Below are positions 11,382 through 38,934 of a stretch of 64,000 bases of DNA, in pieces. The stretch is taken from positions 160,001 to 224,000 of the forward strand of contig CBDCNP010000002.1 in assembly GCA_965219415.1 (NCBI GenBank), in the 5' to 3' direction. The notes under the pieces are model-generated. The model was given only the letters and a program-made list of their open reading frames with translations, was not told the origin of the DNA and did no database searches. The DNA comes from Candidatus Marinacidobacterales bacterium (GTDB lineage: Bacteria; Acidobacteriota; Vicinamibacteria; Marinacidobacterales; DATDRI01). The first letter of the stretch is position 1. Each line of letters starts with the position of its first letter. The translations under genes and the position numbers were made by a program.

Positions 11382-12200
11382 TCAGGACCTCCGCTCTCTA
11401 TCTGACGACGGCGCGGACACGGCATCTAAACAAAAGGATAGCGAGCTCGCCAAAGAGCGCGCGAGTCGATTGACGAGCGGTAGAGTGTCGAACGCCATCG
11501 CTCGTTCCACCTCCTCGCGAACTACCTCCGCATCATCCAACCGCAGAAAAAACGGGGGATAGCGATCCGCGAATGCGAAGAAACTCAAGAGAAGGTGTCC
11601 GGTTCGGAAGTTACCATGCTCAAACGGCGAGATTTCCAACAACCGCGCGAATGCGAGGGCCGCCCTTTCGGGAGAATGCATGCCTCGCCCGCTGTCGACG
11701 CTGAGCCAGTCGCAAAGATTCCCGATTTTGTCTGAAATGAGATCCGGGCGCGAAGGTGGAGAACCGGCGAACTGCGCCGGAGCCGGCTCCGTGCGATAGT
11801 CTCCGTTGGAGTCAGGGGTGGAGAGGCGATGGACCTCGCGGAGGAGACTCTCGGTCAGCTCAGGGGTCGACTCGGCCCTCTCCCGAATGGCGCCGAGCGC
11901 CCGGAGCTGCCCCCGAATGAGGTCGGCGCTGTCGCTCCGTCCCGGGTCCCCTTCGGTGCCCCCGGCCTGCACGTCCGCGATCGCTTGTCTCGCCACGGGT
12001 GCCCCGGTCAAACGAAGGGTCTCGAAAACACACTCTCCAAGCAGCTTTTCGAGGCTATCCGCAAATTTCTCTGGCCGCTCGGCGGCTCGGCGCAGCAGCG
12101 TGTCTCTTTGACGTCCCAAGGCAAGGCCGTGAGTATCGCTCCGATCGGGGTACAGCGGTAGGTTCTGCATGACGCCGCGGGTCCGCTCCAATTCAGTCAC
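11382..12200 (-). CDS. Fic-family protein with degenerate active site
   Basis: LLREVHR...GDYRT; ISPFEHGNFRTGH in place of HPFxxGNGRxxR. Confidence 0.75.
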   Translation of the reverse strand: MTELERTRGVMQNLPLYPDRSDTHGLALGRQRDTLLRRAAERPEKFADSLEKLLGECVFETLRLTGAPVARQAIADVQAGGTEGDPGRSDSADLIRGQLRALGAIRERAESTPELTESLLREVHRLSTPDSNGDYRTEPAPAQFAGSPPSRPDLISDKIGNLCDWLSVDSGRGMHSPERAALAFARLLEISPFEHGNFRTGHLLLSFFAFADRYPPFFLRLDDAEVVREEVERAMAFDTLPLVNRLARSLASSLSFCLDAVSAPSSDRERRS

Positions 12201-12791: not shown

Positions 12792-13646
12792 TCAGTGTTC
12801 CGGCTGGCCACCGTCGGATGGTTTTGCAGCCGCGTCGATCGCATTACGAGCCGCCTCGAAATGGCTTCCCATCTTGGCATGGGCTAGATCGGCGCGCGCT
12901 TCTTTGAGACGGCGCTCCATCTCGACCACGGCTTCCATCAACATGTCGGCGTTGCTCGAGAAGATGTCGTCCCAGATAGCGGCGGAGCTCCCCGCGAGGC
13001 GAGACAAGCTACGAAAGACGGGTCCACCGAGCTCGGTGCCTCGCTCGACCGACGCTGCCTGCTCGCACAGGACGAGAGCGAGGATCTGCGGTAACTGACT
13101 GACCACCGCGACCGCCCGATCATGTGTAGCGGCATCCACCGTAATCGGTTCGCCTCCCACCGCTCGAACGATCTCGCGGAGATCGGAGAGGCCTGATGAT
13201 TCATTGGACATCCTTGGGACGAGCGCCCAGGCCGCGCCTCGAAACAAATCGGGCTCGGCCGCCTGCAGTCCGGAGGTCGCCTTCCCCGCCATCGGGTGGC
13301 CTCCGACGAAGTTGACTTCGTCCGCGAGCGTTTCCGCGGCCGCCATGACGTTTCTCTTGGTGCTCCCCAAATCCGTCACCAAGGAGCCAGGTCGAAATGT
13401 CGACGCGAGCTCACCTATTTGTTCGACGATCGTCGCAACCTGGGCTCCCAAGACGACGACGTCGGCATCTCGAACCGCCCTTTCCGCGTCCACCTCCGTC
13501 TCGTCGACGAGCGAACGCCTACGAGCCTCTTCCAGGACGTCGGGTGCATCATTACCCACCAAGACCCAGTCCGGCCGAGCACGCTTCAACGCCATGGCCA
13601 GGGAGCCACCCATGAGCCCGAGTCCAACAAAGGCGACGCGCTTCAT
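12792..13646 (-). CDS. tyrA: Prephenate/arogenate dehydrogenase
   Basis: GLGLMGGS Rossmann motif, TDLGSTK, GGHPMAG, HDRAVAVVSQLPQ. Confidence 0.92.
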   Translation of the reverse strand: MKRVAFVGLGLMGGSLAMALKRARPDWVLVGNDAPDVLEEARRRSLVDETEVDAERAVRDADVVVLGAQVATIVEQIGELASTFRPGSLVTDLGSTKRNVMAAAETLADEVNFVGGHPMAGKATSGLQAAEPDLFRGAAWALVPRMSNESSGLSDLREIVRAVGGEPITVDAATHDRAVAVVSQLPQILALVLCEQAASVERGTELGGPVFRSLSRLAGSSAAIWDDIFSSNADMLMEAVVEMERRLKEARADLAHAKMGSHFEAARNAIDAAAKPSDGGQPEH

Positions 13647-13653
13647 CGATCCA

Positions 13654-14712
13654 TCATTCGGCGGGTCGACGCTCGCTCGAATGCTCCACCGGTGACGTCA
13701 CGGAACGTCCAATAGCGGTGGCGATGATGCGTATCTCTTCCATGAGCCCTTGGAATTGCTCGGGGTACAGAGATTGCGCGCCATCCGAGAGGGCCTGGTC
13801 CGGATGATTGTGGACTTCAATGAGTAGCCCGTCGGCACCGGCGGCCACCGCGGCGCGCGCCATCGGCACCACCTTTTCCCTTCGGCCGGTGCCGTGGCTC
13901 GGATCGACGATGATCGGCAAGTGCGAAAGTTTCTCGATGATAGGGATGGCAGATAGATCGAGTGTATTCCGGGTGTATCTTTCGAAGGTGCGAATACCTC
14001 GCTCGCAGAGGATCACCTGATGGTTGCCTCCAACCATCACATACTCTGCAGAGAGAAGCCATTCTTCGATGGTCGCGGAGAGGCCACGCTTGAGCAATAC
14101 CGGTTTGTCCACTTTCCCCAGTTCCTTGAGCATGATGAAGTTTTGCATGTTGCGGGCGCCCACCTGAAGAATGTCAACGTATTGGGCGACCAACGGGATG
14201 TGCGTCGTATCCATGACCTCGGAGATCATGAGCATCCCGTTCTCGTCCGCCGCCTCACGTAGGTACTTCAAGCCCTCTTCCCCCAGGCCCTGAAAACTAT
14301 AAGGCGACGTCCGCGGCTTGAAGGCTCCCCCCCGGAGGAAGGTCGCTCCCATTTCCCGCACGCTCGCCGCGATCTCCCTGATTTGATCGCGACTCTCGAC
14401 CGAGCACGGGCCGGCCATGGCCACGACCTCCTCCCCGCCGATGGTCACGTCCCCGATGCGCACGATGGTGTCTTCGCGTTTGAAGGTGCGCCCGGCGAGC
14501 TTGTAGGGCTCGCTGATCCGCACCACCTCCCGCACTCCCACTAGCACCTCGAGGTCGCGGGGGTCCGCCGCGGTTTTCGGAATACCGACAGCCCCTAGAA
14601 CCGTGCGCGTCTCACCGGTCGAACGATGGATGTCATAGCCCCATTCGGTCAGACGCTCGATGACGTTTTGGATGTCTTTCTCTTTAGCGCTGTGCTCCAT
14701 TATGATGACCAT
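13654..14712 (-). CDS. aroF: DAHP synthase, type I-beta, with N-terminal regulatory domain
   Basis: AGPCSVES, GGAFKPRTSPYSFQG, GARNMQNF, CERGIRTF, DPSHG. Confidence 0.95.
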   Translation of the reverse strand: MVIIMEHSAKEKDIQNVIERLTEWGYDIHRSTGETRTVLGAVGIPKTAADPRDLEVLVGVREVVRISEPYKLAGRTFKREDTIVRIGDVTIGGEEVVAMAGPCSVESRDQIREIAASVREMGATFLRGGAFKPRTSPYSFQGLGEEGLKYLREAADENGMLMISEVMDTTHIPLVAQYVDILQVGARNMQNFIMLKELGKVDKPVLLKRGLSATIEEWLLSAEYVMVGGNHQVILCERGIRTFERYTRNTLDLSAIPIIEKLSHLPIIVDPSHGTGRREKVVPMARAAVAAGADGLLIEVHNHPDQALSDGAQSLYPEQFQGLMEEIRIIATAIGRSVTSPVEHSSERRPAE

Positions 14713-14727
14713 GATCTTCCCTACCTC

Positions 14728-15102
14728 CTACTTCTTAACCTTCTTGCGGCTGGGCCTTTTCTTTTTTCGTGCGCGGGTAGGCCTCTTCGTTGGTTTACTT
14801 CCCTCCGGCCTGGGACCCGCACTGCAAACAACTCGCTCCGTGCTCCGCGACTCGTCGATGATCCGCTCGAATAGACGGCGAACCGACTCTTCGTTCAAGG
14901 GCCCATCGTTCGCACTCGTGACTCGCTTGAGGATCTGAACCTCGCGACTCGGCACGTAAATCTCCATATCGTGGGCTCGCTTGATCCAACCGATCTCGAT
15001 CGAGCAGTTCGCCCGCTCGTTCAACAGAACCAGCAGCCGGTCGTCTAGCGCATCGATCCGTTGGCGCCAACTGCCGACCGCAGCCTTGACTTTGCTTCCC
15101 AT
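14728..15102 (-). CDS. Chorismate mutase (AroQ type) with basic C-terminal tail
   Basis: RQRIDALDDRLLVLLNERA...IK...REVQIL...FERIIDESR; ATG at 15102 just after the hisIE stop. Confidence 0.9.
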   Translation of the reverse strand: MGSKVKAAVGSWRQRIDALDDRLLVLLNERANCSIEIGWIKRAHDMEIYVPSREVQILKRVTSANDGPLNEESVRRLFERIIDESRSTERVVCSAGPRPEGSKPTKRPTRARKKKRPSRKKVKK

Positions 15103-15104
15103 CT

Positions 15105-15743
15105 TCAACGCCTTCGCCGCTTCAGCTCTTGCCCCACAGCTGCCGGGGACACCCCGGCTTGCTCCCACAGCACCAGAAGGTGATAAAGAAGATCTGCCGA
15201 CTCTCGGCATAGCTCATCAGGGTCGTTGTTCTTTCCGGCGATGATCACTTCGGCCGCTTCTTCGCCGACCTTCTTCGCAATGCGGTCCACTCCCCCCTCG
15301 AAGAGGCGGGTGGTATAGGAGCCCTCGGGGCGCTTTTTCCGTCGGTCGCGAATCAGCGCCGCCAGCTCGCCTATCGTCTCCGAGAAAACCGTCTCACCCG
15401 GATTCTCAGAGTCGGACACCAATGGAGTGAAGAAGCAGCTGGTCTCCCCGGTGTGGCACGCCGGGCCCTCGAGCTGGACGCGCACCAGCAAAGAGTCCTG
15501 ATCACAATCGGCTATCACTTCGATCACCTTCATCACGTGACCCGACGTCGCTCCTTTTCGCCACAGCTCGTTACGACTTCGTGACCAAAAGTGCACCGCA
15601 CCGGTCTCGAGGGTCTCGTCGAGGCTTTCTTGGTTCATGCAAGCCACCATCAACACGCGGCCACTAGTAGCGTTTTGAACCACGGCGGGTATGAGCCCCT
15701 TGTCATCGAACTTAAGGCTTTCGACCTTGGTCTTTTTCGACAT
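15105..15743 (-). CDS. hisIE: Bifunctional phosphoribosyl-AMP cyclohydrolase/phosphoribosyl-ATP diphosphatase
   Basis: SRSRNELWRKGATSG, DCDQD, ACHTGETSCF, KKVGEEAAE, ADLLYH. Confidence 0.96.
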   Translation of the reverse strand: MSKKTKVESLKFDDKGLIPAVVQNATSGRVLMVACMNQESLDETLETGAVHFWSRSRNELWRKGATSGHVMKVIEVIADCDQDSLLVRVQLEGPACHTGETSCFFTPLVSDSENPGETVFSETIGELAALIRDRRKKRPEGSYTTRLFEGGVDRIAKKVGEEAAEVIIAGKNNDPDELCRESADLLYHLLVLWEQAGVSPAAVGQELKRRRR

Positions 15744-15750
15744 GAGTTGC

Positions 15751-16533
15751 TCAGTTTCTCGCGGATCGGGACGATCTGGTTAGGCGGACCGGAACCCCGC
15801 GCTCGGCCAAGAAATGTTTTGCCTCGCGAACGCGATAGGTCCCGAAATGAAAAACGGAAGCGGCGAGGACAGCGCTCGCCTTGCCTTCGGTCAGTGCTTC
15901 TTCCAGGTGTTCGAGCCTCCCGCAGCCCCCGGATGCGATGACCGGAATGGAGACCTCTTCAGCGATCGCGCGCGTGAGTGGTATGTCGTAGCCCTCCTCC
16001 GTGCCGTCACGATCCATGCTGGTCAGGAGAATCTCACCCGCCCCCAATTCCTCCGCCCGTTTCGCCCAGGCCACCGCATCGATCCCGGTAGCGGTGCGGC
16101 CTCCGTTGACGAACACTTCGAACCCACCGTTTCCGCGTTTTGCGTCGATGGCAAGCACCATGCACTGTTTCCCGAACCTCTGAGCGCCTTCATTGAGTAG
16201 CTCGGGCTCTTTCACCGCCGCGGTATTGATGGCGACCTTATCCGCTCCTGCTTCTAGAATGGATTTCATGTCATCCACTGTTCGAATGCCGCCCCCCACG
16301 GTAAAGGGGATGGTCAACGTGTCTGCCATCCGCTCCACCATGCGACGCTTTGTGGCCCGCTGCTCGTGGGAGGCGGTGATATCCAAGAAGACGAGCTCGT
16401 CGGCCTCTTCTTCGTCGTAACGCGACCCCGCCTCTACCGGATCACCAGCATCCACGATATCAACAAAACGTACGCCCTTGACCACGCGTCCCTGGTCGAC
16501 GTCCAAGCAAGGGATGATCCGCTTTGCCAGCAT
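15751..16533 (-). CDS. hisF: Imidazole glycerol phosphate synthase cyclase subunit
   Basis: [34 protein letters not shown]; true start 16533. Confidence 0.97.
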
Positions 16534-16534
16534 G

Positions 16535-17266
16535 TCAACCCGAAACCGTTCCCGCTTCGATGGCGGCGGCCAATGTGAAGACTTTGTCGTAGAGCGCACG
16601 GCCGACGATGACCGCTTCCACCCCGTCTTCCCCTGCCGGCTGAAGACGACGGAGATCTTCCAGCGAGCCGATCCCACCCGAAGCGATGACCCGCGCCCCG
16701 GTTTCCTTCGCGAAGCGTTTGACCCCGTCCACGTTGGGTCCAGTGAGAACGCCGTCTCGCGAGATGTCGGTATAGATGAACCGGCTGGCGCCTCTATCCA
16801 CCCATTGCTTGCCGAGCTCGAGGGGTCCGAGCGCCGAGTCCTCTTCCCAACCGCGAATGGATACTTTGCCTTTCCGCACGTCGACCCCGATAGCGACCGC
16901 CTCCGGAGCAATCGCCAACGCCTGTTGCACGACCGACGGGGTTTCCACGGCCGCGGTGCCGAACACCGCCCGAGCTGCCCCCACCTGCATCAGCCATTCG
17001 AAGTCTGCGATGTCCCGAATCCCGCCTCCGACCTGAACCGAGGCTTGGACCGCGCTGAGTATTTCTTGAATGGCGGAGCGATTCCCCCGCTGGCGCTCGA
17101 AGGCGGCATCGAGATCAACGATGTGGAGCATCTCCGCTCCTTGCGCCTGCCAATCCCGAGCAACTTCCGCGGGATCGTCACCGTACACGGTTTCCGTTCC
17201 GCGCTCTCCGCGCACCAGACGCACACATCGTCCCCCTTCGATGTCGATCGCCGGGATGATGGTCAT
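16535..17266 (-). CDS. hisA: ProFAR isomerase
   Basis: [35 protein letters not shown]. Confidence 0.96.
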
Positions 17267-17278
17267 TGTGTCACCGCG

Positions 17279-17887
17279 TCAGGCCCGCCAGTAGTTCGTC
17301 AGGACTTTGAGGCCAAGCTGCTGACTCTTCTCCGGATGAAACTGGATCCCTGCCACGCGATCTTTGCTGGCTACCGAACAAAACGACACATCGTAATCCG
17401 TCTCGGCCTTGACCGCGTCGTCCCCGTCCGGATCGACGTAGTACGAATGCAGAAAATAGAAATAGTCGCCAGTCTCGACCCCTTCGAGAAGCCGGGCCGT
17501 TCCGTGGAGCTCGAGTTGGTTCCACCCAATATGGGGGACGGGGCGTTCGGTTGAGAAACGACGGACCTGCCCTGGAAGCAAACCGAGCCCCGAGACACCG
17601 GGGGCTTCCTCGCTGGCATCGAAGAGCATCTGGAACCCGACACAGATGCCGAGCAGTGAAGCGCCCTCCTCGATAGCCTCCCTCAACGGAGCCTCAAGGT
17701 CGCGGTCTCGAAGATTTCGCATTGCCGCTCCGAAATGTCCTACACCTGGCAGGACTAGTTGCTTCGCACGACGGATTTCCTCGCATTCTGCCGAAAGCTT
17801 GCTCGGCGCCCCGATGCGCTCGAAGGCACGCGCGACGCTCCCCAGGTTCCCGACGCCGTAATCGACGACGATCAGATTCTCCGGCAT
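17279..17887 (-). CDS. hisH: Imidazole glycerol phosphate synthase glutaminase subunit
   Basis: DYGVGNLGS, LPGVG, GICVG, PHIGWN, QFHPEKS. Confidence 0.96.
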   Translation of the reverse strand: MPENLIVVDYGVGNLGSVARAFERIGAPSKLSAECEEIRRAKQLVLPGVGHFGAAMRNLRDRDLEAPLREAIEEGASLLGICVGFQMLFDASEEAPGVSGLGLLPGQVRRFSTERPVPHIGWNQLELHGTARLLEGVETGDYFYFLHSYYVDPDGDDAVKAETDYDVSFCSVASKDRVAGIQFHPEKSQQLGLKVLTNYWRA

Positions 17888-17890
17888 GGG

Positions 17891-18481
17891 CTAGTCCTTG
17901 AGTGTCCCTTTGGTCGAAGGGACTTCGGAACCACCAGTTCGGCGGACCGCTTCGCGAAGTGACCGTGCGAAACCCTTGAAGACGGTTTCGATGATGTGGT
18001 GGTTGTTGCCCCCGTGAAGCGATTCCACGTGGAGCGTCAATCGAGCGCGGTCGGAGAGAGCGCGAAAGAAGTCCTCGAAGAGCTCGGTTGGAAAGTCTCC
18101 TACCCGATCGGAGGTGAAGCGAACTCTCCAGCTCAGGTAGGGACGGCCCGAAAGGTCGACCACGACTCGAGCCAACGCCTCGTCGAGGGGAACGAAAGCG
18201 ATTCCGAAACGGTTGACCCCCGACTTGTCTCCCAGGGCTTCCTCCAAACAATCACCAAAGACCAGCCCGATGTCTTCCACCGTATGGTGGAAGTCCACGT
18301 GCAGATCGCCCTTCGCCTTGACCGAGAGATCGAGATTTCCGTGGTGGGCTAGCAGCTCCAACATGTGATCGAGAAAACCGATTCCGGTGGACACATCGGC
18401 CTTGCCGCTACCGTCCACGGTCAGCTGAACTTCGACCTCGGTCTCTTTGGTCGAGCGTTTCTTCTGCGCGATTCTATTCAT
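17891..18481 (-). CDS. hisB: Imidazoleglycerol-phosphate dehydratase
   Basis: TGIGFLDHML, DFHHTVED, NNHHIIE, PSTKG. Confidence 0.97.
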   Translation of the reverse strand: MNRIAQKKRSTKETEVEVQLTVDGSGKADVSTGIGFLDHMLELLAHHGNLDLSVKAKGDLHVDFHHTVEDIGLVFGDCLEEALGDKSGVNRFGIAFVPLDEALARVVVDLSGRPYLSWRVRFTSDRVGDFPTELFEDFFRALSDRARLTLHVESLHGGNNHHIIETVFKGFARSLREAVRRTGGSEVPSTKGTLKD

Positions 18482-19578
18482 TGAAGCTCCTCCACCGTCT
18501 CGCGAAGAGCACCTAGGAACTTGACGTTCTCATCGGGCCGGCCCACCGTCACCCTCAGGGCCCGGCTCAATCTGGGGTTCGAGCTCAAGTTACGAACCAA
18601 GACGCCTCGGGCGAGCAAACCGTCGAACACTTGCGTTGCCCCGGCGCTGCATTCGAATAGGATGAAGTTGGCCGCCGACGGATAGGGGTGAATGCCGTCC
18701 AAGTCGCGCAGCTTCCGATACAGCGCATCCCTTTCCTCCACGATCACGTTGGCTTGTTTCCGAATGAGCTCGTAATGATCACAGACCGCGAGCCCGACGG
18801 CGCGCGAAAAACCGTTCAGCGCGTACGGCAGTTGTGCTTTCTCTACCTCTTCCGCGAGCGCAGGCGCCGCGAGCAGGTAGCCAATCCGGAGGTCGGCGAG
18901 TCCCACGGCCTTCGAAAAAGTGCGCGACAAAGCCATGTGCGGATACCGGGGGAGGAGCTCCCTCGCAACCGAACCGCCGAACTCGAAATAGGCCTCGTCT
19001 ACCACCAAGAGACCTGGGCATTCCTTCGCGATTCGTTCGATTTCTGCCGCACTGAGCGTCGAGCCAGTGGGATTGTTGGGAGAGCACAAGAATACTAGCG
19101 CAGGTTGGTTCTCCTTTATCGCCCGGACGAAAGCATCGACGTCGTAGCGGTAATCCGGCCTCATTGGGACTTCCACCCTGTCCGCGCCCAGCATGCGGCT
19201 GACGTAGCCGTACAAGACGAAGGACGGAGTCGGGTAGACGACGCTTCGGCCCCGCTCGAGCGTCGAGAGGGCCAGCATATGGAGCAGCTCGTTCGAGCCG
19301 TTCCCCACCAAGACACCCTCGGCGGGCCAGTCATTGAGACTACCCAAGGCGCTCTTGAGCTCAGCCGCTTGTACGGGTGGGTATCGGTTCAGGGCAAGCT
19401 CGGACAGCGCGTCTCGAATGGCTCGTCCGAGGGCCTCGGGCGGATCATAGCTGCTCTCGTTTTGGTCGAGCTTGACCGATGCCGCGTGTGGCTCGAGTCG
19501 GTAGGCTCGGATCGAGCGAACCTCGGGTCGCAAACGGCCGAGAAGAGGCTCCGCCAGATCTCTTTCGCGGCTTGTCAT
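18478..19578 (-). CDS. hisC: Histidinol-phosphate aminotransferase
   Basis: KLDQNE, GNGSNE, CSPNNPTG, VDEAYFEF, RTFSKAVGLA. Confidence 0.95.
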   Translation of the reverse strand: MTSRERDLAEPLLGRLRPEVRSIRAYRLEPHAASVKLDQNESSYDPPEALGRAIRDALSELALNRYPPVQAAELKSALGSLNDWPAEGVLVGNGSNELLHMLALSTLERGRSVVYPTPSFVLYGYVSRMLGADRVEVPMRPDYRYDVDAFVRAIKENQPALVFLCSPNNPTGSTLSAAEIERIAKECPGLLVVDEAYFEFGGSVARELLPRYPHMALSRTFSKAVGLADLRIGYLLAAPALAEEVEKAQLPYALNGFSRAVGLAVCDHYELIRKQANVIVEERDALYRKLRDLDGIHPYPSAANFILFECSAGATQVFDGLLARGVLVRNLSSNPRLSRALRVTVGRPDENVKFLGALRETVEELQ

Positions 19579-20867
19579 TCCGAGAACCTCGTTGCAATCG
19601 ATCGAGCGTGCGCCTCGAACCCCTCGGCGCGGGCGAAGGCTTCGATGTCGTTTCGGTCCCGTGACAATTTCTCGCGACTATAGCGAATGAGGCTCGATCG
19701 CTTGATGAAATCATAAACACCCAGCGGAGACGCGAATCGCGCCGTGCCTCCGGTCGGCAGAACATGGTTGGGACCCGCGTAGAAATCTCCGATCGGCACC
19801 GGGGAGCTCGCACCCATAAAGATCGCTCCTGCATTCCTAACGCGTTGCGCTAGTGCTTCGGCGCCGTCGGCCATGATCTCGAGATGCTCGGGAGCCAACT
19901 CGTCGACCAACGCCACTCCTTGATCCAGATCGCAGACCAAGATCGCGGCGCCGTGTTTCTCGAGTACGGTGCGGATCATGGGGGCGCGCGGGAGGCCTTC
20001 CATCTGTTTGAGTATCTCGACGGCGACGGCGTCGATGAGCTCACGGGATGTGCAGACCAGAATAGCTCGCTCGTCTCCCGAACCGTGCTCGGCCTGAGAC
20101 AGCAGGTCGGCCGCCACGTATGCTGGATCGGCCGCGCCGTCCGCAAGCACGACGATTTCGCTAGGGCCGGCGAGAGAATCGATTCCCACGACGCCGTAGA
20201 GGAGTTTTTTCGCGCTCGTGACGTAGGCATTGCCGGGCCCGACGATCTTATCGACGCGCGGGACCCTTGCCGTGCCGAAGGCCATGGCGGCGACCGCCTG
20301 TGCGCCACCGACGCGAAACACCTCGGTCAGCCCAAGATCTTCGATCGCCGCGGCAAGGGCAGGTGAACGCTCGATCGTGCCGGGGGGTGTGCAGACGACG
20401 ATTCGGCGCACACCAGCGATCTGCGCCGGTACCGTATTCATGATGAGAGTCGACGGGTAGACCGCCTCCCCTCCTGGCACATAGACACCGACCGTATCGA
20501 GGGCACAGATCTTTTGCCCCACCAGGCTGCCGTCTTCGAGCTCAATGCTCCAGCTGGCTTCCTTCTGCCGTTCGTGGAAGCGACGGACGTTGTCTGCGGC
20601 GTTCACCAGTACCGACCGAATTGCCTGGGTAGCATTGGCTGCTTCGGCTGCGATCTGCCGGGCATCCACGCGCAATTCGTTTGGTCCGAGGCGGACACCG
20701 TCTAGCCTCTCCGCGAGCTCGACCAACGCATCATCCCCTTCGAATCGTACGGAACGAATGATCTCTTCGACACGCGTCACAATCTCAGGAGGTGTCACGC
20801 CCGCACCGGAGAGGCCCTCTCCCCGTTCGGTGAGGAAATCGTCCGGATTTTCGAACACGCGAATCAT
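19575..20867 (-). CDS. hisD: Histidinol dehydrogenase
   Basis: GVYVPGG, GGAQA, GPGNAYV, AGPSE, QAEH, APEHLE, NHVLPT. Confidence 0.97.
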   Translation of the reverse strand: MIRVFENPDDFLTERGEGLSGAGVTPPEIVTRVEEIIRSVRFEGDDALVELAERLDGVRLGPNELRVDARQIAAEAANATQAIRSVLVNAADNVRRFHERQKEASWSIELEDGSLVGQKICALDTVGVYVPGGEAVYPSTLIMNTVPAQIAGVRRIVVCTPPGTIERSPALAAAIEDLGLTEVFRVGGAQAVAAMAFGTARVPRVDKIVGPGNAYVTSAKKLLYGVVGIDSLAGPSEIVVLADGAADPAYVAADLLSQAEHGSGDERAILVCTSRELIDAVAVEILKQMEGLPRAPMIRTVLEKHGAAILVCDLDQGVALVDELAPEHLEIMADGAEALAQRVRNAGAIFMGASSPVPIGDFYAGPNHVLPTGGTARFASPLGVYDFIKRSSLIRYSREKLSRDRNDIEAFARAEGFEAHARSIATRFSE

Positions 20868-21502
20868 TGCTCCACCTCGCGGGCCAAAGACGAAACGAAC
20901 TCACCCAAGACGCGCCCCTTGAGCCGAAAGCTGGCCCGGTTGATGATGAGCCTCGCCGTGCTCTCGAAGAGCACTTCATCGATTTCCAGCCCGTTGGCCG
21001 CCATGGTTTTACCGGTTTGCAGGAGGTCGACGATGCAATCCGCCAACCCCAGGACCGGGGCGAGCTCGACCGAGCCGGAAAGGAGAATGACTTCCACCGG
21101 AATTCCGTGACCGTGAAAGTAGCGAGACGCTACTTCGGGATACTTCGTCGCAACTCTCACCAATGGCAGATCCCGATAAGCCCCGGGTCGCTGATTCTGA
21201 TCACGAGCCACCACCATCTGACAGCGACCAATGCGTAAGTCGAGCGGCTGGTAGACGTCCGGGTTGATCTCGGAAAGAACATCGTTTCCGACGATGCCGG
21301 CATCGACGACGCCGTGCTCGACGTAAGTCGGCACGTCGCGATCCTTTACGAGCACCGACGACTGATCTCGCCTGTTCGAGACGTGCAACTTCCTGGCCTC
21401 GCGGACGTCGTTCGGAAGGGCGAAGCCCGAGCGCGTGAGAAGCGCCACCGTTTCGTCGAAGATCCTGCCGGTGGGAAGCGCCAGGCGTATGGCGGTCGTC
21501 AA
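20864..21502 (-). CDS. hisG: ATP phosphoribosyltransferase, short form
   Basis: DVPTYVEHG, VATKYP, GSVELAP, CIVDL; lacks C-terminal regulatory domain. Confidence 0.95.
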   Translation of the reverse strand: MTTAIRLALPTGRIFDETVALLTRSGFALPNDVREARKLHVSNRRDQSSVLVKDRDVPTYVEHGVVDAGIVGNDVLSEINPDVYQPLDLRIGRCQMVVARDQNQRPGAYRDLPLVRVATKYPEVASRYFHGHGIPVEVILLSGSVELAPVLGLADCIVDLLQTGKTMAANGLEIDEVLFESTARLIINRASFRLKGRVLGEFVSSLAREVEQ

Positions 21503-22584
21503 CCTAACCTCACCTTCTCGCCCTTTCGCCGGCGTTCCATGGCTTCCCCGAGAGCTCGCGCGGGTTCTTTCTCGAGGGTGATGGCTTTCGACGCTGGTTT
21601 GGGCGGGAGCTTTTTCTCGTCGACCTTGTGCGCCAAGCGATCGAGGGACAAGGAAAAACCAACCGCTGGATGCGGCATACCGAATTTCGTTAGGAGGGAG
21701 TCGTATCGACCTCCTCCACCAAGCTCCAGCCCAGTGCCCGGTGCGTGAAGCTCGAAGATCATTCCCGTGTAGTAATCAAAATCTCGAACCTCGCCGAGAT
21801 CAAATTGGATGCGGTCGCCGAAGCCGAGAGCATGAAGCTCTTTGGAAATGGCACCGAGCCGTTCCAACGCGGCTTGGCTCTCCGGCCGAGTGGCAACGGC
21901 CTGCGCTCGATCGAGGATCTCGAGGCCGCCGAACAAACGCATCGCTTCCAAGACCGCGGTCGGCACTACTCTTCCCAGAACGGCACCGGCGCGATCGGCA
22001 TTTCGAGCTCGCATCGCTTCTAGAAGTTCTGGCTGGACGCCCGGTGATACCTCCGAATCCTCGAGCACACCGACCAAGAAACCTGTATGCCCGAGCGTCA
22101 GGACCGCGTCGTTCACCCCCAGTCGCCCCAGTGCCTCGAAGGCCACGAGCAATACTTCCAAATCGGCGGCCAATCCGTTGCCGATGTGCTCTAGGCCGAT
22201 TTGAAAGAGCTCCTTTTGTTGTCCCGCCTGGGGCGGTTGGTACCTGAGCACTTCGCCGCTGTAGAAAAGTCGCAATGGCAGCGAGCGGTCTTGCATCCGG
22301 GAGGCAACGACTTTGGCCACCAGTGCGGTGAAGTCGGGCCGGAGCGCCAACAACTCCCCCGCCCGCCCGATGAAACGATAGATCTGCTCGGCGAAACTGG
22401 GCCCACCGGCACGCGCAAAGACCTCGTAGTAGTCGAAGAGAGGGACGATAATTTCTTCGTACGACCAGCCGGAAAAGACGTCACCGACCACCCGCTCCAC
22501 TTGCTTGCGGAGTCGCGCCTCGCGCCCGTAGAAGCATTGCACTCCTGAGGGTATCTGTAGGTTAGAGCGTTGATTCATAGCCAC
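21499..22584 (-). CDS. hisZ: ATP phosphoribosyltransferase regulatory subunit
   Basis: HisRS-like LRPDFT, YYTG, GGGRYD; no anticodon-binding domain; adjacent to short hisG. Confidence 0.92.
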   Translation of the reverse strand: MAMNQRSNLQIPSGVQCFYGREARLRKQVERVVGDVFSGWSYEEIIVPLFDYYEVFARAGGPSFAEQIYRFIGRAGELLALRPDFTALVAKVVASRMQDRSLPLRLFYSGEVLRYQPPQAGQQKELFQIGLEHIGNGLAADLEVLLVAFEALGRLGVNDAVLTLGHTGFLVGVLEDSEVSPGVQPELLEAMRARNADRAGAVLGRVVPTAVLEAMRLFGGLEILDRAQAVATRPESQAALERLGAISKELHALGFGDRIQFDLGEVRDFDYYTGMIFELHAPGTGLELGGGGRYDSLLTKFGMPHPAVGFSLSLDRLAHKVDEKKLPPKPASKAITLEKEPARALGEAMERRRKGEKVRLG

Positions 22585-22663
22585 TGCCGCTTTCGGGCGT
22601 CAAAGAAGGGCGGGAGGCAAACTGCGACCTCGCCACACGCCAGATCAGACCCCTGTGACATTA

Positions 22664-24184
22664 TTAGCTCTGACCCCAGCGTCGGTGCATTTCGGCTCGG
22701 GCCGCGCTTTCCATGACCCCCGCGTCTCCCGTCCTTCCGGTCCACAACTTCGACTGCCGCACCGCCTGGGCCACAAGCATCTCGAGACCCGGCACCGCGA
22801 AAGCCTTTCTATCTCTGGCCAACTCGAGGATCTCCGTTTTCTCCAGGTCGTAAATCATATCCAGAACAAGAGCACCGGGCCGGAACGCCTCGATCTGCTC
22901 CGCGGAGTCAACGTCGATCAGTCCTTCATATAAAGGAGTGGCGTTGACCAAGATATCCCATCGATGAGCGGCAAACTCGCCTATTTCGCCCGCATCTCCC
23001 CCTACGAGGTCGGCGACGCTGCGTGCTTGCTCCAACCTGCGCGCGAGAACCACGACCTCGGCCCCCGCCTGTCCCAATCCAACTGCGGCGGCGCGGGCCG
23101 CCCCACCACCACCAAGAACTAACGCGCGTTTCCCTTCGATACGGAGACGACGGGACACCGGATCCACGACCCCTTCCACGTCGGTATTGAACCCGCACCA
23201 CCGTCCGCCTCGAGCGACAACCGTGTTGACCGCCCCCGGCTCCTCGGCCGACCGATCCACGTCGCCTAGGAAGGGCAGGATAGATTCCTTGAACGGCCGG
23301 GTTACGGAAAAGCCGGCGACACCGAGCTCCTTGGCGGCTGGAACGAAGAGAGCGAGACTCTCTTCTTCAAAGGGAACGTAGATCGCGTTCAATCCGGCAT
23401 GGGCGAATTGGGCGTTGTGCATCGCCGGCGAGAGGCTACCGAGCGCCGGCCGCCCGAGTATCCCGTAGATTTTTGTTGTCGCGTCTACCGTCCGGAAACG
23501 GTAAGTGCTCAGGAGCTCGTCGAGATCGAGCTGTCCTGGACCCGTCGCAGGTAATCCGCGCGCCGCGGCATAGGTGAGGTTGCCGCCTAGCCGATTGGCG
23601 ATCACCCGACCGGCGGTCCCGGCGGGGCCCATAGGGATCGGAGCGAATCCGACGCCACGGCTTCGAGCAAGTCGACCCGCCTCGCCGAGCCGAACCACAT
23701 CGGCAAGCGAGCCTGCCCGCGCCGCCACCTTGACGATATCGGCGCCCGCTACCGCGGCGCGCTCAACGATCTCCGACAAATCGTCCGGCATCCCATCGAA
23801 TTTGTGGTGAGACAGAATCAGCCGTGAAGAAGTTTCCATCGTACGAAGCTCGTCGGAGAAGGAGTCCAGTTCGATGTCAACGAAGTCGAAGCCCAACCCC
23901 ATAGCCCGTCGCAAAATCTCGAGGCGCTCGCGCTCCGAGCCCTGGAACACTCCTCCCTCTCGCCGAGTGCGGCAGGTAAGGATTAGAGGCCTGGTGCCCG
24001 CCCTCCGTAGGCCTTCTAAATCGAGGTCTTGGAGAGCGTCAACGCGAAGCTCCACGAGGTCTGCACCCTCGCAGGCGTCCTCAGCAGCCCGCCGCATTTC
24101 CTCGGCGGTAGACGCCATAACCGCCGCCACTACGCGAGTCGCAGCCCCCGCCAAGATGGGGTCGGTTCCCCTCTTTGTATCCAA
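22664..24184 (-). CDS. aroE: Fused type I 3-dehydroquinate dehydratase/shikimate dehydrogenase (start uncertain)
   Basis: AroD part: DLVELRVD, TCR..EGG, VDIE, SHH, DIVK, GQL. AroE part: SLSPAMHN, SVTRPFK, AVNT, NTD, GGGGAA, NATP. Confidence 0.92.
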   Translation of the reverse strand: MDTKRGTDPILAGAATRVVAAVMASTAEEMRRAAEDACEGADLVELRVDALQDLDLEGLRRAGTRPLILTCRTRREGGVFQGSERERLEILRRAMGLGFDFVDIELDSFSDELRTMETSSRLILSHHKFDGMPDDLSEIVERAAVAGADIVKVAARAGSLADVVRLGEAGRLARSRGVGFAPIPMGPAGTAGRVIANRLGGNLTYAAARGLPATGPGQLDLDELLSTYRFRTVDATTKIYGILGRPALGSLSPAMHNAQFAHAGLNAIYVPFEEESLALFVPAAKELGVAGFSVTRPFKESILPFLGDVDRSAEEPGAVNTVVARGGRWCGFNTDVEGVVDPVSRRLRIEGKRALVLGGGGAARAAAVGLGQAGAEVVVLARRLEQARSVADLVGGDAGEIGEFAAHRWDILVNATPLYEGLIDVDSAEQIEAFRPGALVLDMIYDLEKTEILELARDRKAFAVPGLEMLVAQAVRQSKLWTGRTGDAGVMESAARAEMHRRWGQS

Positions 24185-24214
24185 AAAAAAACCTCTTCAG
24201 GCGACCTGAAGAGG
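24183..24214 (-). terminator. Intrinsic (attenuator) terminator upstream of the aro/his operon
   Basis: Minus strand CCTCTTCAGG-TCG-CCTGAAGAGG followed by T9; perfect 10-bp stem. Confidence 0.9.
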
Positions 24215-24304
24215 AAAATACCGTCCGGCATCTTACATCCCCAGGCTCCCTATTGTGGCCGGCGTGTCAACGTGTCAGCGTGACACGCCGGGCTAGGCGC
24301 CCAG

Positions 24305-24424
24305 CTAGGCCCCGTAATGGTACCGATGGTACGTAAGATGCGCGAAACTACCGTCTGTACAAGCCCCGAGACACGGAAACGCCTTCAACGCCGTCATCGC
24401 TAGCACTGTCACTCGTGGGCTCAT
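24305..24424 (-). CDS. Leader peptide of the his/aro operon (39 aa, His/Tyr/Phe-rich end)
   Basis: MSPRVTVLAMTALKAFPCLGACTDGSFAHLTYHRYHYGA*; AAGG upstream; alternative in-frame ATG at 24397; lies between promoter and terminator. Confidence 0.8.
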   Translation of the reverse strand: MSPRVTVLAMTALKAFPCLGACTDGSFAHLTYHRYHYGA

Positions 24425-24443
24425 TTTCGACCTTGCGCTTCAA

Positions 24444-24472
24444 ACGCTACACCCGCCACTTTTTCATGTCAA
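24444..24472 (-). promoter_or_regulatory. Sigma70-type promoter of the leader/operon
   Basis: TTGACA (24472-24467), 17 bp spacer, TAGCGT (24449-24444). Confidence 0.7.
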
Positions 24473-24614
24473 GTGACACTCCAGTTCCATGAGTCGCACC
24501 ACCCGCAATTTTCTGAGTTGGCGAGCACTCTTTTCTTGTAACGTCACCGCTCGGGTGCTATATAAAAAAGGTTCTCGATTTCATCGTGGACCCGAATCGA
24601 GGCGCGCCGTGAAT

Positions 24615-25136
24615 ATGAACCGGATCTTGAGATCCGTCGTTTTCTTTAAACACGTCAGCGACCGTCATGTCCATCAACTGGTGGACATGGCGCGACTGCA
24701 AACCGTAGAGAACGGAGAGGTCGTCTTCTCCGAAGGTGAGGCCGAGAACCACCTCTACCTGATCGAGAGCGGCCGTATTCAGATCTCTCGCGATGGGCCT
24801 CACTTTGGCCGCCAAACCTTCGCGCTCCTCGGCCCCGGAGATCACTTCGGCACCTTGTCGCTCTTCTACCCCGATCCCCACTTCGCGTCGGCCATCGCTG
24901 TCGAGTCGACGCGCCTTTGGATCATCCGCCACGACGACTTCCAGGCCTGCCTCCGGAAACAACCGAAGCTTGCCTTCGCAGTCCTCAAGGGAATGGTGCT
25001 CGGCATCCGAACCGCCAACGGCGAAATCCGACGGCTGACGACACTCTTCGATCAACGATCTCGCTCGGCAATCGAGCTGCCCACAAAAGGACGCTCGACT
25101 CACCCATCGGTCCCACTCCCACCCCCGACGAATTGA
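24615..25136 (+). CDS. Cyclic-nucleotide-binding (Crp/Fnr-like) domain protein without evident HTH
   Basis: VFSEGE..LYLIESGRI, LGPGDHFG, ASAIA. Confidence 0.85.
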   Translation: MNRILRSVVFFKHVSDRHVHQLVDMARLQTVENGEVVFSEGEAENHLYLIESGRIQISRDGPHFGRQTFALLGPGDHFGTLSLFYPDPHFASAIAVESTRLWIIRHDDFQACLRKQPKLAFAVLKGMVLGIRTANGEIRRLTTLFDQRSRSAIELPTKGRSTHPSVPLPPPTN

Positions 25137-25219
25137 CCCCGGCGGAACCTTCCGGAGTAACAGACCCCGGAAAACCTTGATTCGTCTCTGTTTAAGGGAA
25201 CACATCAGACGAGAGGGTT

Positions 25220-25248
25220 TTGACGGTGCCCTTCCTTTGAACTATCAT
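25220..25248 (+). promoter_or_regulatory. Sigma70-type promoter of the S55 peptidase operon
   Basis: TTGACG, 17 bp spacer, TATCAT. Confidence 0.6.
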
Positions 25249-25256
25249 TAGGGTCG

Positions 25257-27218
25257 GTGAGTCATTCGCCCACAACTTCTTCCGTGTTGCCGACGCGGAT
25301 TCTCGAGGTTCACTTAGGAATGCCCATATCCAGCAGTCGAAAGCTGAAGAGGCGTCTGCCGCTCGTCATTCTCTGGCTCTGGCTTTTCACCGTTTCCTTG
25401 CTTCCCACGCTCGGTGCGGCCTCCCAGGGTGTCGAGACCATTTCGATCGATGCGGTCGAGCCCGGCATGGTAGGTGAAGGTCGCACCGTCTTTTCCGCCG
25501 AGCAGATCGAGACGTTCAAGGTCACGATCATGGGTGTGCTGCGGAACTATGGCCCCAACCAAAACATGATTTTGGCCAAGCTCGAAGGCGGCCCCCTCGC
25601 CGAGACCGGGGTGATCGCCGGAATGAGCGGCAGCCCGGTCTACATTGACGGGAAACTGCTCGGAGCGGTGGCCTACTCCTTCCCGTTCTCCAAGGAACCT
25701 ATCACGGGAATCACCCCCATCTCAGAAATGATCGAAGCCACCGCGACGCCCATTTCACGACGCAAGGTGGCGAAGCTCGACTTTCCGCTCACACCGGAGC
25801 GACTGCGGACCGTCGCACCTCATCGGGTGCGGCCGGTCGCAATCCAGGGCGCGTCGCTCAGCGGAGTCGACCAACTCCGGCCGTATCTGGGGAAACTCCT
25901 TTCTCCTATTGCCACGCCCGCATCACTCAACGGCTTTCTCCCGGAGACCTACGACATTGCGGCCCCTTTGCTGCGGGCGCTCGGGATGGAACCCTTGCTC
26001 GGCGGCGCGATGGTGCCAGGGCTCCAGACCGGCAGCGAGATCGCGGAAATCACCACGCCCAACTCCGAGCTCACGCTGCAGCCGGGCGATGCCGTCGGAG
26101 TAGGACTCATCACGGGAGACATGGATATAAGCGCCACTGGCACCGTGACCCATGTCGACTCATTAACCGGAAGCGTTTACGCGTTCGGCCATCCTCTCTT
26201 CAACCTCGGCCCCATCGAATACCCGATGACCAGAGCCAAGGTGCACTTGGTCCTACCGAGCCTCTACAGCTCCTTCAAGCTGGCGAGCTCCGGCCCTACG
26301 GTGGGAACCTGGCTGCAGGATCGCCACACCGCCATCAAAGGAGCACTTGGTAGCCGGCCGAAGATGATTCCCCTGTCGGTCCGGGTAAAGACCAGTCGAG
26401 AACTAGAGAGATCCTATAACCTCAAGATCGTCAACGACGAGCTCTTCTCACCGGTGCTGGCCTACGTGTCGCTGATGTCCATTCTTCAGTCCACCGAAAG
26501 ACAATTCGGAACTGCAACGGTGAAGGTCTCGGCCTGGATTTCTCTGGTGGACGAGCGACGGGTGCACATCGAGGACATCTTCGCGGACCAGCAACCCGCG
26601 TTGTCTGCATCCGCCATGGCGGCAGCCCCCCTATCCTTCCTCATGACCAACGACTTCCAGAAAGTCGAAGTGGAATCAATGGAGGTCTCGATCGAGGCCA
26701 CCGAGAGCCCGCAAACCGCACGCTTGGTTCGCGCGTGGCTGGACACCGATCGCGTCGCCCCGGGCGGCACCATCTCGTTGAAGCTTTTGCTGCGCTCCTA
26801 TCGTGGTGAGGACGTACTGAAGACGGTCGACGTCGCCATTCCAACCAACGTCGGCGAAGGCAAGCTCAAGCTCCTGGTTGCCGATGCGACCACCATTTCA
26901 GCAATGGAACGTCGCGAGGCGCACAATCGCTTCGAGCCGCGCAATCTGGATCAGCTCATTCGCGCGCTCAACGCACTGCGAAAGAACAATCGCCTTTATG
27001 TGAAGTTGACCAGTCCCGATCGCGAAGGGGCCATCGTCGCGGGAGAGTACCTCTCCTCCCTGCCCCCGAGTGTAATGAACGTCTTGAAAGCAGACCGCTC
27101 GAGCGCGAGCTATATTCCTATCAACAGCTCGACCCTATGGGAGTACGAGCTGGTCACCGATTACAGCCTCAGCGGCGCGCGCGTTCTCGAGATCACGGTG
27201 GGCAACCTTCAAAACTAG
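25257..27218 (+). CDS. SpoIVB-like peptidase S55 domain protein, exported (start probably 25320)
   Basis: GVIAGMSGSPVYIDGKLLGAV, ATGTVT, AFGHP. Confidence 0.88.
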   Translation: MSHSPTTSSVLPTRILEVHLGMPISSSRKLKRRLPLVILWLWLFTVSLLPTLGAASQGVETISIDAVEPGMVGEGRTVFSAEQIETFKVTIMGVLRNYGPNQNMILAKLEGGPLAETGVIAGMSGSPVYIDGKLLGAVAYSFPFSKEPITGITPISEMIEATATPISRRKVAKLDFPLTPERLRTVAPHRVRPVAIQGASLSGVDQLRPYLGKLLSPIATPASLNGFLPETYDIAAPLLRALGMEPLLGGAMVPGLQTGSEIAEITTPNSELTLQPGDAVGVGLITGDMDISATGTVTHVDSLTGSVYAFGHPLFNLGPIEYPMTRAKVHLVLPSLYSSFKLASSGPTVGTWLQDRHTAIKGALGSRPKMIPLSVRVKTSRELERSYNLKIVNDELFSPVLAYVSLMSILQSTERQFGTATVKVSAWISLVDERRVHIEDIFADQQPALSASAMAAAPLSFLMTNDFQKVEVESMEVSIEATESPQTARLVRAWLDTDRVAPGGTISLKLLLRSYRGEDVLKTVDVAIPTNVGEGKLKLLVADATTISAMERREAHNRFEPRNLDQLIRALNALRKNNRLYVKLTSPDREGAIVAGEYLSSLPPSVMNVLKADRSSASYIPINSSTLWEYELVTDYSLSGARVLEITVGNLQN

Positions 27219-27268
27219 TGTAGTCCCGAGCTCGCACTCGAACCCCTCAGTCGAAAGGATAGAGATAG

Positions 27269-35868: not shown

Positions 35869-36546
35869 CTACTCCGTCTTCCCGGGCGGAGGGAGCGTCA
35901 CGACGTCTTCTGGATTTTCCAACCAATAGTCCGGTTCGTGAAGCTCGAGAACCTCCCTTTCGATCGGCCCCCAAAGTGCCGCTCCGGTGGAGACGCCGGC
36001 CGCTCTCCCGGCAGCCAGGTCGTGGGCCGAGTCGCCGATAAAAACAGTCTCCGAGGGCTCTACGCCCAGTTGCTCGATGGCATGAAGGACGGGTGCCGGG
36101 TCGGGCTTGGGGCGCTCGACGTCATCGACTCCCACCAAGACAGGAAACAAGTCACCGAAACCGCCGATTCTTAACCCCCGTTGGGCGCCCGATCTCGCCT
36201 TGCTGGTAACAACAGCTAGCTTCACACCCCGGGAGCTCAACGTCCTAACCGCTTCCAAGGCTCCGGGAAACACCGCCACCATGTCGTCGTGATGCTGGTT
36301 GTTGTATTCGCGGTAGGTCACGAGCATCGCCTCAACGACGTCGGGATCGTCCGAGAACTCGCCGAGTTGCTTGCGGAGGGGCGTCCCCATGCCCGCGAGC
36401 CACAGCTCGTCGGGTGGCACGCTGCCGAGATGCGTTTGAATCGTGTGGCGGTACGACCGAAGGATCAACTCCACCGAATCGATAAGCGTCCCATCAAGGT
36501 CGAAAAGGTAAGCCTTGAACGGTAGGTCAGCCACGAAGCTCCGCAC
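35869..36546 (-). CDS. HAD-superfamily hydrolase (PpaX/phosphoglycolate phosphatase-like)
   Basis: FDLDGTL, VVTSK, KPDP, IGDS..D. Confidence 0.9.
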   Translation of the reverse strand: MRSFVADLPFKAYLFDLDGTLIDSVELILRSYRHTIQTHLGSVPPDELWLAGMGTPLRKQLGEFSDDPDVVEAMLVTYREYNNQHHDDMVAVFPGALEAVRTLSSRGVKLAVVTSKARSGAQRGLRIGGFGDLFPVLVGVDDVERPKPDPAPVLHAIEQLGVEPSETVFIGDSAHDLAAGRAAGVSTGAALWGPIEREVLELHEPDYWLENPEDVVTLPPPGKTE

Positions 36547-38929: not shown

Positions 38930-38934
38930 AGTGA

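Follow-up and report, generated by a model that had tools for sequence, protein, structure and literature searches.

A candidate leader-peptide attenuator with interleaved histidine and tyrosine codons in front of a composite histidine-tyrosine operon of Acidobacteriota

Introduction

How could a single leader adjust an operon in which the histidine pathway is joined to the tyrosine branch of aromatic amino acid synthesis? This question is raised by a 64 kb stretch of contig CBDCNP010000002.1 (the whole stretch analysed, hereafter the window), assigned by the source names to the phylum Acidobacteriota and the class Vicinamibacteria. The first gene of such an operon, aroDE, is separated here by approximately 300 nt from a divergent gene for a cyclic nucleotide monophosphate (cNMP)-binding protein (24489-25136, plus strand), and this interval is filled by the elements of a leader. 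The initial annotation of the window had listed a promoter, an AAGG motif, a 39-codon open reading frame (ORF), an 11-bp hairpin, a terminator followed by nine U and an antiterminator, all of which were recovered in our analysis at the positions originally given (Table 1; all coordinates of leader elements refer to the minus strand). Our preferred reading, which we consider probable, is that these elements form a ribosome-mediated transcription attenuator of the classical four-segment type, which responds to His and Tyr and acts on the composite aroDE-his-chorismate mutase-DAHP synthase-tyrA operon.

In the textbook scheme of attenuation, a ribosome stalled on region 1 of the leader transcript determines which of the 1:2, 2:3 and 3:4 helices are formed. 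To our knowledge, the leader-peptide attenuators described so far come nearly all from Proteobacteria, Actinobacteria and a few Firmicutes, and they serve one amino acid or amino acids of connected pathways. Leader ORFs with clustered control codons, and the mechanism in general, are dealt with in parts of PMC9413887 and PMC11802643.

Results

The leader ORF, whose ATG (24424) is preceded at a distance of 6 nt by the Shine-Dalgarno-like AAGG, is translated as MSPRVTVLAMTALKAFPCLGACTDGSFAHLTYHRYHYGA followed by the stop codon. Among the 104,988 stop-free nine-codon segments in the six frames of the 64 kb, its segment HLTYHRYHY is the only one with at least three His and at least three Tyr codons, and also the only one in which His and Tyr together number at least six. 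The operon background is 1.75% His and 1.83% Tyr (3,774 codons), and the His/Tyr cluster is not due to chance. All three His codons of the leader are CAT, which is the rarer one in the operon (23 CAT, 43 CAC). The leader has no Trp codon, as opposed to two to four in each of 23 syntenic loci of relatives (see below), and its share of Phe is a single control codon, Phe27. Of the sensing of His and Tyr/Phe proposed by the initial annotation, the His and Tyr parts match the content of the operon and the Phe part comes down to that one codon; dual sensing is what we infer.

An exhaustive HMMER search of 1.84 billion representatives with the leader peptide gave four matches (P0122 to P0125). P0125 is a 52-residue homologue of the leader peptide from another organism and clusters with a second variant, P0126, also of 52 amino acids, which differs from P0125 at five positions, none of them in GHLTYHRYHYGA. 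The remaining three matches (P0122, P0123 and P0124) were discarded as chance, each being either a long repetitive or an unrelated protein. Both homologues begin with MSLR.TIL, sharing the MS.R.T start with the window peptide, and end with GHLTYHRYHYGA. The alignment of the window peptide with P0125 shows identity at 27 of 52 positions, including all of the last 11 residues, and an in-frame gap of 13 residues. Conservation of the His and Tyr codons in relatives, which had been proposed initially as a check, is borne out to the extent that GHLTYHRYHYGA is unchanged in both homologues while the remaining peptide diverges; P0125 and P0126 are known as peptides only, in which constraint at the RNA level and at the codon level would be inseparable. 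P0125 is listed from a single contig of 2,394 nt, as is P0003, an AroDE protein 81% identical to that of the window, and the two are probably neighbours. In the word-indexed protein set, no candidate was found for the leader peptide plus one upstream codon, and a query with P0125 found P0125 alone.

The initial annotation had recognized a mixed histidine and aromatic operon downstream of the leader, and Pfam and NCBIfam assignments agree with it, specifying the aromatic part as the tyrosine branch (Table 1). The close spacing of the 13 genes (12792..24184, minus strand) suggests that they form one transcript, and no second leader or terminator is visible in the 79-nt gap between aroDE and hisZ. 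Judged by the gene assignments, the aromatic part consists of the common pathway and the tyrosine branch, matching the Tyr codons of the leader; neither trp genes nor a gene for prephenate dehydratase were detected with Pfam in the operon or, elsewhere in the window, in the ORFs that exceed a size of 150-200 amino acids.

The switching logic, which the initial annotation had left unresolved by eye, is provided by a helix that it had overlooked. In the minimum-energy fold, GCAUCUUACGUACC (24341-24328), which constitutes region 1, pairs with GGGGAUGUAAGAUGC (24242-24228) of the antiterminator strand. This 1:2 helix is predicted to sequester the antiterminator strand unless a ribosome is positioned on the control codons. 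The 1:2, 2:3 and 3:4 helices use common bases and are therefore mutually exclusive. The energy of the 1:2 duplex is -25.8 kcal/mol, a value that was reached in 7 of 5000 cases when region 2 was shuffled and in 42 of 5000 when the control segment was shuffled. The antiterminator alone has -20.7 kcal/mol, as compared to -16.0 kcal/mol for the terminator alone. As a whole, the 271-nt leader folds better than all of 200 dinucleotide shuffles (z = -3.29).

The effect of the ribosome was modelled in two ways. At equilibrium, forced-structure folds were computed with a 30-nt ribosome mask. The terminator state was ahead by 9.6 kcal/mol without a ribosome (-107.4 vs -97.8 kcal/mol) and by 8.1-9.4 kcal/mol with the ribosome at the stop codon, whereas the terminator and antiterminator states were -1.9 to +2.3 kcal/mol apart once the A site was placed in the range of codons 27-35. 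The kinetic snapshot represents a transcript that has emerged up to the terminator loop, with the 3' arm not yet out and the ribosome masked. Here region 2 was bound to region 1 (13-15 nt) if there was no ribosome or the ribosome was at the stop, and to the terminator 5' arm (16 nt) if the A site was at any of the eight tested codons from 27 to 37. Folding with the ribosome masked, another check proposed initially, thus gave the expected switch of helices for codons 27-37 in the snapshot; for codons 36 and 37 the support comes from the snapshot only, equilibrium switching being limited to codons 27-35. In the predicted folds, the position of the ribosome on the control codons decides the structure.

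The terminator stem (24214-24192) consists of ten pairs, six of them G-C, closed by a loop of three, and is followed by nine T (24191-24183). It is the strongest of 12 terminator-like sites found between 20000 and 30000, where shuffles averaged 8.4 such sites. Its placement directly before aroDE by the initial annotation was correct, with the amendment that the start of aroDE is most likely the TTG at 24184-24182, which would overlap the end of the T run: translated from there, AroDE aligns with its homologue P0002 from residue 1 (52 of 70 residues identical). If the start is placed at this TTG, the ribosome binding site (RBS) GAGG (24195-24192) is part of the terminator 3' arm, and the hairpin should therefore block the translation of aroDE as well. 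One hairpin could in this way gate both transcription and translation of aroDE.

Both hexamers of the promoter are aligned at the matching place in two loci of relatives (L015 and L005). The promoter was not listed by the consensus promoter scan, and its -10 hexamer TAGCGT agrees with TATAAT at only three of six positions. Transcription would start near 24437, about 13 nt before the leader ORF.

Loci of relatives were collected by a profile search of genome contigs, in which an alignment of 25 AroDE sequences served as query and which gave at least 80 loci. The best AroDE identity among the contig matches listed is about 44%; AroDE homologues with 62-99% identity are not among the matches listed (the protein homologues P0002-P0012 are 62-82% identical to the window AroDE). 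Of the 80 listed loci, 23 have, like the window, a divergent S55-peptidase gene upstream of aroDE (L001, L002, L004-L013, L015, L016, L018, L019, L021, L022, L026, L028, L029, L032 and L034, referred to as syntenic loci), and 22 of these are labelled Vicinamibacterales or Acidobacteriota, the exception being L010. Leader ORFs were scanned for in the 47 of the 80 loci in which the match reaches the AroD N-terminus, with a threshold of four aromatic residues; the leaders of L019 and L029, which are under this threshold, were picked up by eye.

All 23 syntenic loci have just 5' of aroDE, at a distance of about 150 nt from the aroDE match, a short ORF with two to four Trp codons, which are mostly flanked by Tyr (for example SYWWWY, SYWWWYASAEGA, LYWYWYYPF, RWHYWF and RWWQV); at least one Tyr is present in 22 of them. 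In each case the ORF is followed by a terminator with a U-rich tail (-15.6 to -31.4 kcal/mol), and in many of the loci aroDE starts 8-12 nt past the terminator 3' arm. The genes downstream are those of tryptophan synthesis: trpE comes directly after aroDE in 20 of 23 loci (the other three end too early), the trpEGDCFBA block is complete in 16 (by Pfam for L008), and it is followed by chorismate mutase and DAHP synthase in 13 and by DAHP synthase alone in two more. No his genes were found after aroDE in any of the 23 loci.

The terminator of this family, conserved as GCCUCUUCAG...CUGAAGAGGC, has 95% of its cells paired in the alignment and compensatory changes in 9 of 14 pairs, and none of 500 shuffles was as good. 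A G-rich strand near the end of the ORF (consensus GCUGgGGGGC) is complementary to the terminator 5' arm, 84% of it being paired as compared to 41-60% with a slid partner. In each of the 19 loci in which its position was measured, this antiterminator strand begins within the ORF, 1-62 nt ahead of the stop; there is no region 1. This amounts to a two-hairpin design, in which a ribosome at the stop would cover the antiterminator strand. Masked folds reproduce it in part: the antiterminator forms in 19 of the 23 relatives when the ribosome is stalled at the first Trp codon. No Rfam match was obtained for this Trp/Tyr leader family (L008 was scanned), we found no description of it in print, and we regard it as a new family of leader-peptide attenuators in Acidobacteriota.

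Six loci that do not have the S55-peptidase neighbour (L003, L014, L017, L027, L037 and L048) show no clear leader. In one of them, L027, an ORF at 7635-7778 with the sequence ...VYYTRTWFAGG... (FTVYYTRTWFAGGQGG) lies upstream of aroDE-trpE and could represent a leader that has diverged. L010 carries the label 'uncultured Bifidobacteriaceae', yet it has a locus and a leader of the Vicinamibacterales type and is probably mis-binned.

The window shares with this family the divergent S55-peptidase neighbour, the position of the leader before aroDE, the terminator sequence (CCUCUUCAG...CUGAAGAGG), the promoter hexamers (of L015 and L005, see above) and an ORF ending with G-A-stop (as in L007). It differs in four respects: hisZGDCBHAF-IE stands where the relatives have the trp block; the leader has three His codons and has kept Tyr, whereas the relatives have tandem Trp codons; the antiterminator strand begins 61 nt past the stop and not within the 3' end of the ORF; and the 1:2 helix and the 11-bp hairpin are additions. 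Region 2 corresponds to the G-rich segment CUGrGGGGC that is present in the relatives. Lying beyond the reach of the ribosome, the antiterminator strand of the window needs region 1. A covariance model of the 23 loci had its best match in the window at 24217-24183 (13.5 bits, E about 0.02 in a rough calibration). A second match (27192-27294, minus strand, between the S55 gene and the next gene) has UGGUGG and CUGAGGGG and no terminator, and was taken as chance.

The exchange of trp genes for his genes and the change from Trp to His codons go together, as the attenuation model predicts. With the same locus and the same terminator on both sides, Trp/Tyr codons accompanying trp genes and His/Tyr codons accompanying his genes, the control codons seem to follow the content of the operon. 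This suggests that the window leader is a Trp/Tyr attenuator retuned to His/Tyr together with its cargo, the direction being set by parsimony (23 species vs one lineage, unrooted). The ancestor would have been a simpler two-hairpin Trp/Tyr attenuator in front of aroDE-trpEGDCFBA-chorismate mutase-DAHP synthase. Its Trp codons would have given way to His while Tyr stayed, the antiterminator strand would have moved about 60 nt downstream, and a new region 1 would have come to control this strand. We regard as evenly balanced the chances of the whole proposition, namely that one leader reads the charging of both tRNA-His and tRNA-Tyr, that it was re-coded from Trp/Tyr along with the trp-to-his swap and that the two-hairpin device was rebuilt into a four-segment one.

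Table 1. Leader elements and genes of the regulated operon, all on the minus strand of the window
Feature	Position	Description	Basis
Promoter	24444..24472	-35 TTGACA 24472-24467, 17-nt spacer, -10 TAGCGT 24449-24444	sequence
AAGG and leader ORF	24305..24434	AAGG 24434-24431, ATG 24424, 39 codons, TAG 24307-24305	
Control codons	24314..24346	Phe27 UUC, His29 CAU, Tyr32 UAC, His33 CAU, Tyr35 UAC, His36 CAU, Tyr37 UAC	
Region 1	24328..24341	GCAUCUUACGUACC, within control codons, His29 to His33; partner region 2	minimum free energy folds
Perfect 11-bp hairpin	24259..24291	24291-24281 with 24269-24259	sequence and predicted fold
Region 2	24226..24245	CCUGGGGAUGUAAGAUGCCG; partner region 1 or terminator 5' arm	folds
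Antiterminator (2:3)	24205..24245	outer helix CCUGGGGA (24245-24238)/UCUUCAGG (24212-24205), inner helix AAGAUGCC/GGUAUUUU	
Intrinsic terminator (3:4)	24183..24214	CCUCUUCAGG-UCG-CCUGAAGAGG, then U9	
RBS and probable start of aroDE	24182..24195	GAGG 24195-24192 in terminator 3' arm; TTG 24184-24182 overlapping U run	
aroDE	22664-24184		Pfam
hisZ	21499-22584		Pfam; NCBIfam above curated cut-off
hisG	20864-21502		Pfam; NCBIfam above curated cut-off
hisD	19575-20867		Pfam
hisC	18478-19578		Pfam; NCBIfam above curated cut-off
hisB	17891-18481		Pfam
hisH	17279-17887		Pfam
hisA	16535-17266		Pfam
hisF	about 15751-16530		Pfam
hisIE	15105-15743		Pfam
Chorismate mutase	about 14728-15100		NCBIfam above curated cut-off
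DAHP synthase	13654-14712		NCBIfam above curated cut-off
Prephenate dehydrogenase	12792-13646		NCBIfam models best match but under cut-off

Further features were observed in the leader. Its N-terminal coding half (about 24360-24424) is predicted to form a long hairpin of AGCCCACGAG with CUCGGGGCUU, which takes in the region of the start codon and may serve as a gate for leader initiation or as a pause site; its arms encode S-.-R and C-L-G-A, which are conserved in P0125 and P0126 as well. Around the leader stop, a short direct GCCUAGC repeat is present (24296-24321, GGGGCCUAGCUGGGCGCCUAGCCC). MAFFT places CUGGGCGCC in line with the antiterminator strand CUGGGGGGGC of the relatives, and it may be what is left, in decayed form, of the original antiterminator strand next to an insertion of about 60 nt. 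The 11-bp hairpin is nested within the 1:2 helix, in a segment of about 60 nt that the relatives are without; as a guess, it could act as a spacer or pause hairpin.

Rfam scans of 22000-27000 and 24150-24500 with E up to 10 found no family at the gathering threshold. The sub-threshold matches (bits vs gathering threshold) were wcaG (19.6 vs 42), Fluoride (19.3 vs 34), anti-hemB (19.9 vs 49.5) and TtnuCD6 (15.7 vs 50), of which the fluoride-riboswitch match (24065-24131, minus strand), lying inside the aroDE coding region, was taken as chance.

In the surroundings, the Crp/Fnr-like cNMP-binding gene, which starts 17 nt from the -35 hexamer, is flanked by the S55 gene (25257-27218) on one side and by the leader on the other. 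It looks like an insertion, since the relatives have their S55 gene (for example L008 5884-7761) directly next to the leader. About 600 nt past the end of the operon there is a gene with a Fic/DOC domain (11382-12200, minus strand), and the window contains transposases of the IS110 (6655-8181, plus strand) and Mutator (52185-53477, minus strand) families. The pheS-pheT genes (36527-40041, minus strand) have an upstream region of 373 nt (40042-40414), in which neither a Phe-rich leader ORF nor an obvious terminator was seen.

Discussion

The elements of the leader, the mutual exclusivity of its helices, the conservation of the control peptide and a homologous family of attenuators are all documented here, and the element is very likely a leader-peptide attenuator. 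As to the signals, we lean slightly towards both His and Tyr being effective.

In the preferred mechanism, translation of the leader ORF, stalling at both kinds of codon and a response by read-through are presumed. If charged His-tRNA and Tyr-tRNA were both plentiful, the ribosome would pass codons 27-37 and reach the UAG, leaving region 1 (24341-24328) bare. Region 1 would then bind region 2 (24242-24228), and the terminator with its U9 would form, so that transcription would stop just before aroDE; in this terminated state the hairpin would also bury the GAGG of aroDE (24195-24192). If either charged tRNA were scarce, the ribosome would stall on H-L-T-Y-H-R-Y-H-Y and cover region 1. Region 2 would then bind the terminator 5' arm to form the antiterminator (24245-24205), RNA polymerase would read on and the RBS would be free.

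Several observations weigh against this reading. The 1:2 duplex is only moderately unusual, since an equally good pairing with region 2 is found for 24 of 3000 random genomic 38-mers. For some settings of the footprint, the terminator remains the favoured state at equilibrium when the ribosome stalls at Tyr35, His36 or Tyr37. Among the 23 relatives, only 14 were free of the antiterminator when the ribosome was at the stop, and only 7 when there was no ribosome; the terminator won at equilibrium in all 23. The match of the covariance model in the window is weak and confined to the terminator (model positions 89-128). One or two His codons stand beside the Trp run in five of the 23 trp-type leaders (L005, L010, L021, L026 and L034, with runs such as WWYHWF, WHYWF, WWWHSH and HGWWWW) without his genes downstream. 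His and Tyr codons are separated by one transition, and single leader His codons could be drift; in these trp-type leaders they may represent drift from Tyr codons, or hint at an older His input. By analogy with the aroR leader of Corynebacterium glutamicum (see below), the presence of a codon would be no proof of sensing. Finally, the window is the single genomic context in which a His/Tyr-type leader was examined, and the entire analysis is in silico.

The alternative that survives best, unlikely as it is, is a leader-peptide attenuator sensing His alone, in which the Tyr codons would be relics of a Trp/Tyr ancestor or be kept as part of region 1. Most relatives have Tyr beside the Trp run, so that Tyr may be inherited, the His codons of the leader are of the rarer CAT type, and his genes (hisZ, hisG, hisD, hisC, hisB, hisH, hisA, hisF and hisIE) account for most of the 13 genes of the operon. 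A precedent is the aroR leader (Phe-Tyr-Phe) of C. glutamicum in front of aroF, which encodes DAHP synthase: according to the part of PMC11802643 that concerns it, aroR responds to the availability of Phe and not of Tyr, its Tyr codon giving no tyrosine response. Sensing of His alone is opposed by the three Tyr codons, which are kept in P0125 and P0126 though only Tyr32 lies within the 1:2 helix, and by the end of the operon, where chorismate mutase, DAHP synthase and prephenate dehydrogenase make up a tyrosine branch.

The converse, an attenuator sensing aromatic amino acids only (Tyr, perhaps Phe), in which the His codons would be neutral C/U drift from Tyr codons or structural, is improbable. 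The His codons beside the Trp run in five trp-type leaders fit it, as does the single transition between CAU and UAC-type codons. However, Trp codons are absent just where trp genes are absent and his genes are in place, and three His in nine codons are unique in the window and unchanged in two diverged homologues.

It is likewise improbable that the element is not ribosome-mediated at all, the 5' region being a structured RNA that responds to a protein, tRNA or small molecule, or the hairpin being a leaky terminator or a device that hides the RBS, with the ORF incidental. The -10 box is weak, the AAGG is short and translation of the leader is deduced from its sequence; moreover, a long hairpin takes up the N-terminal half of the ORF, which might therefore be conserved as RNA. 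On the other hand, the ORF stays open across an indel of 13 codons, an ORF with tandem Trp codons occupies the same place in all 23 syntenic loci, and no riboswitch, T-box or other Rfam match was obtained at E up to 10 save the far sub-threshold ones.

The least probable alternative is that control is exerted mainly on the translation of aroDE through the hidden GAGG and not on transcription termination: the position of GAGG in the 3' arm, the overlap of the TTG with the U run, the similar spacing in many relatives and the RBS-sequestering attenuators described in part of PMC9413887 speak for it, but a perfect 10-bp stem with nine U is a canonical intrinsic terminator, and translational control would add to the favoured mechanism rather than exclude it.

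Among known systems, hisL and trpL of E. coli and Salmonella are like the window leader in having a short ORF with clustered codons and 1:2, 2:3 and 3:4 helices, the last of which is the terminator. The window leader has no sequence or covariance-model similarity to them, and it differs in that three His codons are interleaved with three Tyr codons instead of a run of a single residue, that the operon joins two pathways, that the terminator 3' arm holds the RBS of the first gene, and in the phylum, Acidobacteriota. Integration of several amino acids by one leader is known from thrL (Thr, Ile) and ilvL/ivbL (Ile, Leu, Val) of enterobacteria. The amino acids sensed by these share a pathway or precursors, whereas His and Tyr in the window do not, the link through HisC aside. 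HisC is an aminotransferase that links His and Tyr synthesis in Bacillus subtilis, a connection for which our literature search found no paper. The aroR leader of C. glutamicum resembles the window leader in that mixed control codons govern an operon of the shikimate pathway by attenuation; its codons are aromatic only, whereas the window interleaves His from an unrelated pathway, and no homology was detected between the two.

Surveys offer no direct counterpart in the parts that bear on the subject: leaders in the survey of his regulation in PMC9413887 are His-only, the actinobacterial survey in PMC1262725 found no His or Tyr leader, and PMC4833913, which touches on leader peptides of Acidobacteria, is a statistical survey of leader genes in which no such element is described. 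A search of the full-text literature, which most subscription journals lie outside, found no paper on a leader peptide with both histidine and tyrosine codons and nothing relevant on an attenuator or leader of Vicinamibacter.

What is new with respect to these systems is a set of control codons mixing His and Tyr, placed on an operon that joins the histidine pathway with the tyrosine branch. If the proposed history is true, it would be a natural attenuator that was re-programmed, codon by codon, in step with its cargo, offering a testable case for the evolution of cis-regulatory specificity and a compact two-input sensor for synthetic biology. As compared with hisL, trpL and their kind, the mechanism itself is ordinary; the interest of the window leader lies in the codon mix of two pathways, in the phylum and in a re-coding that parallels the change of cargo.

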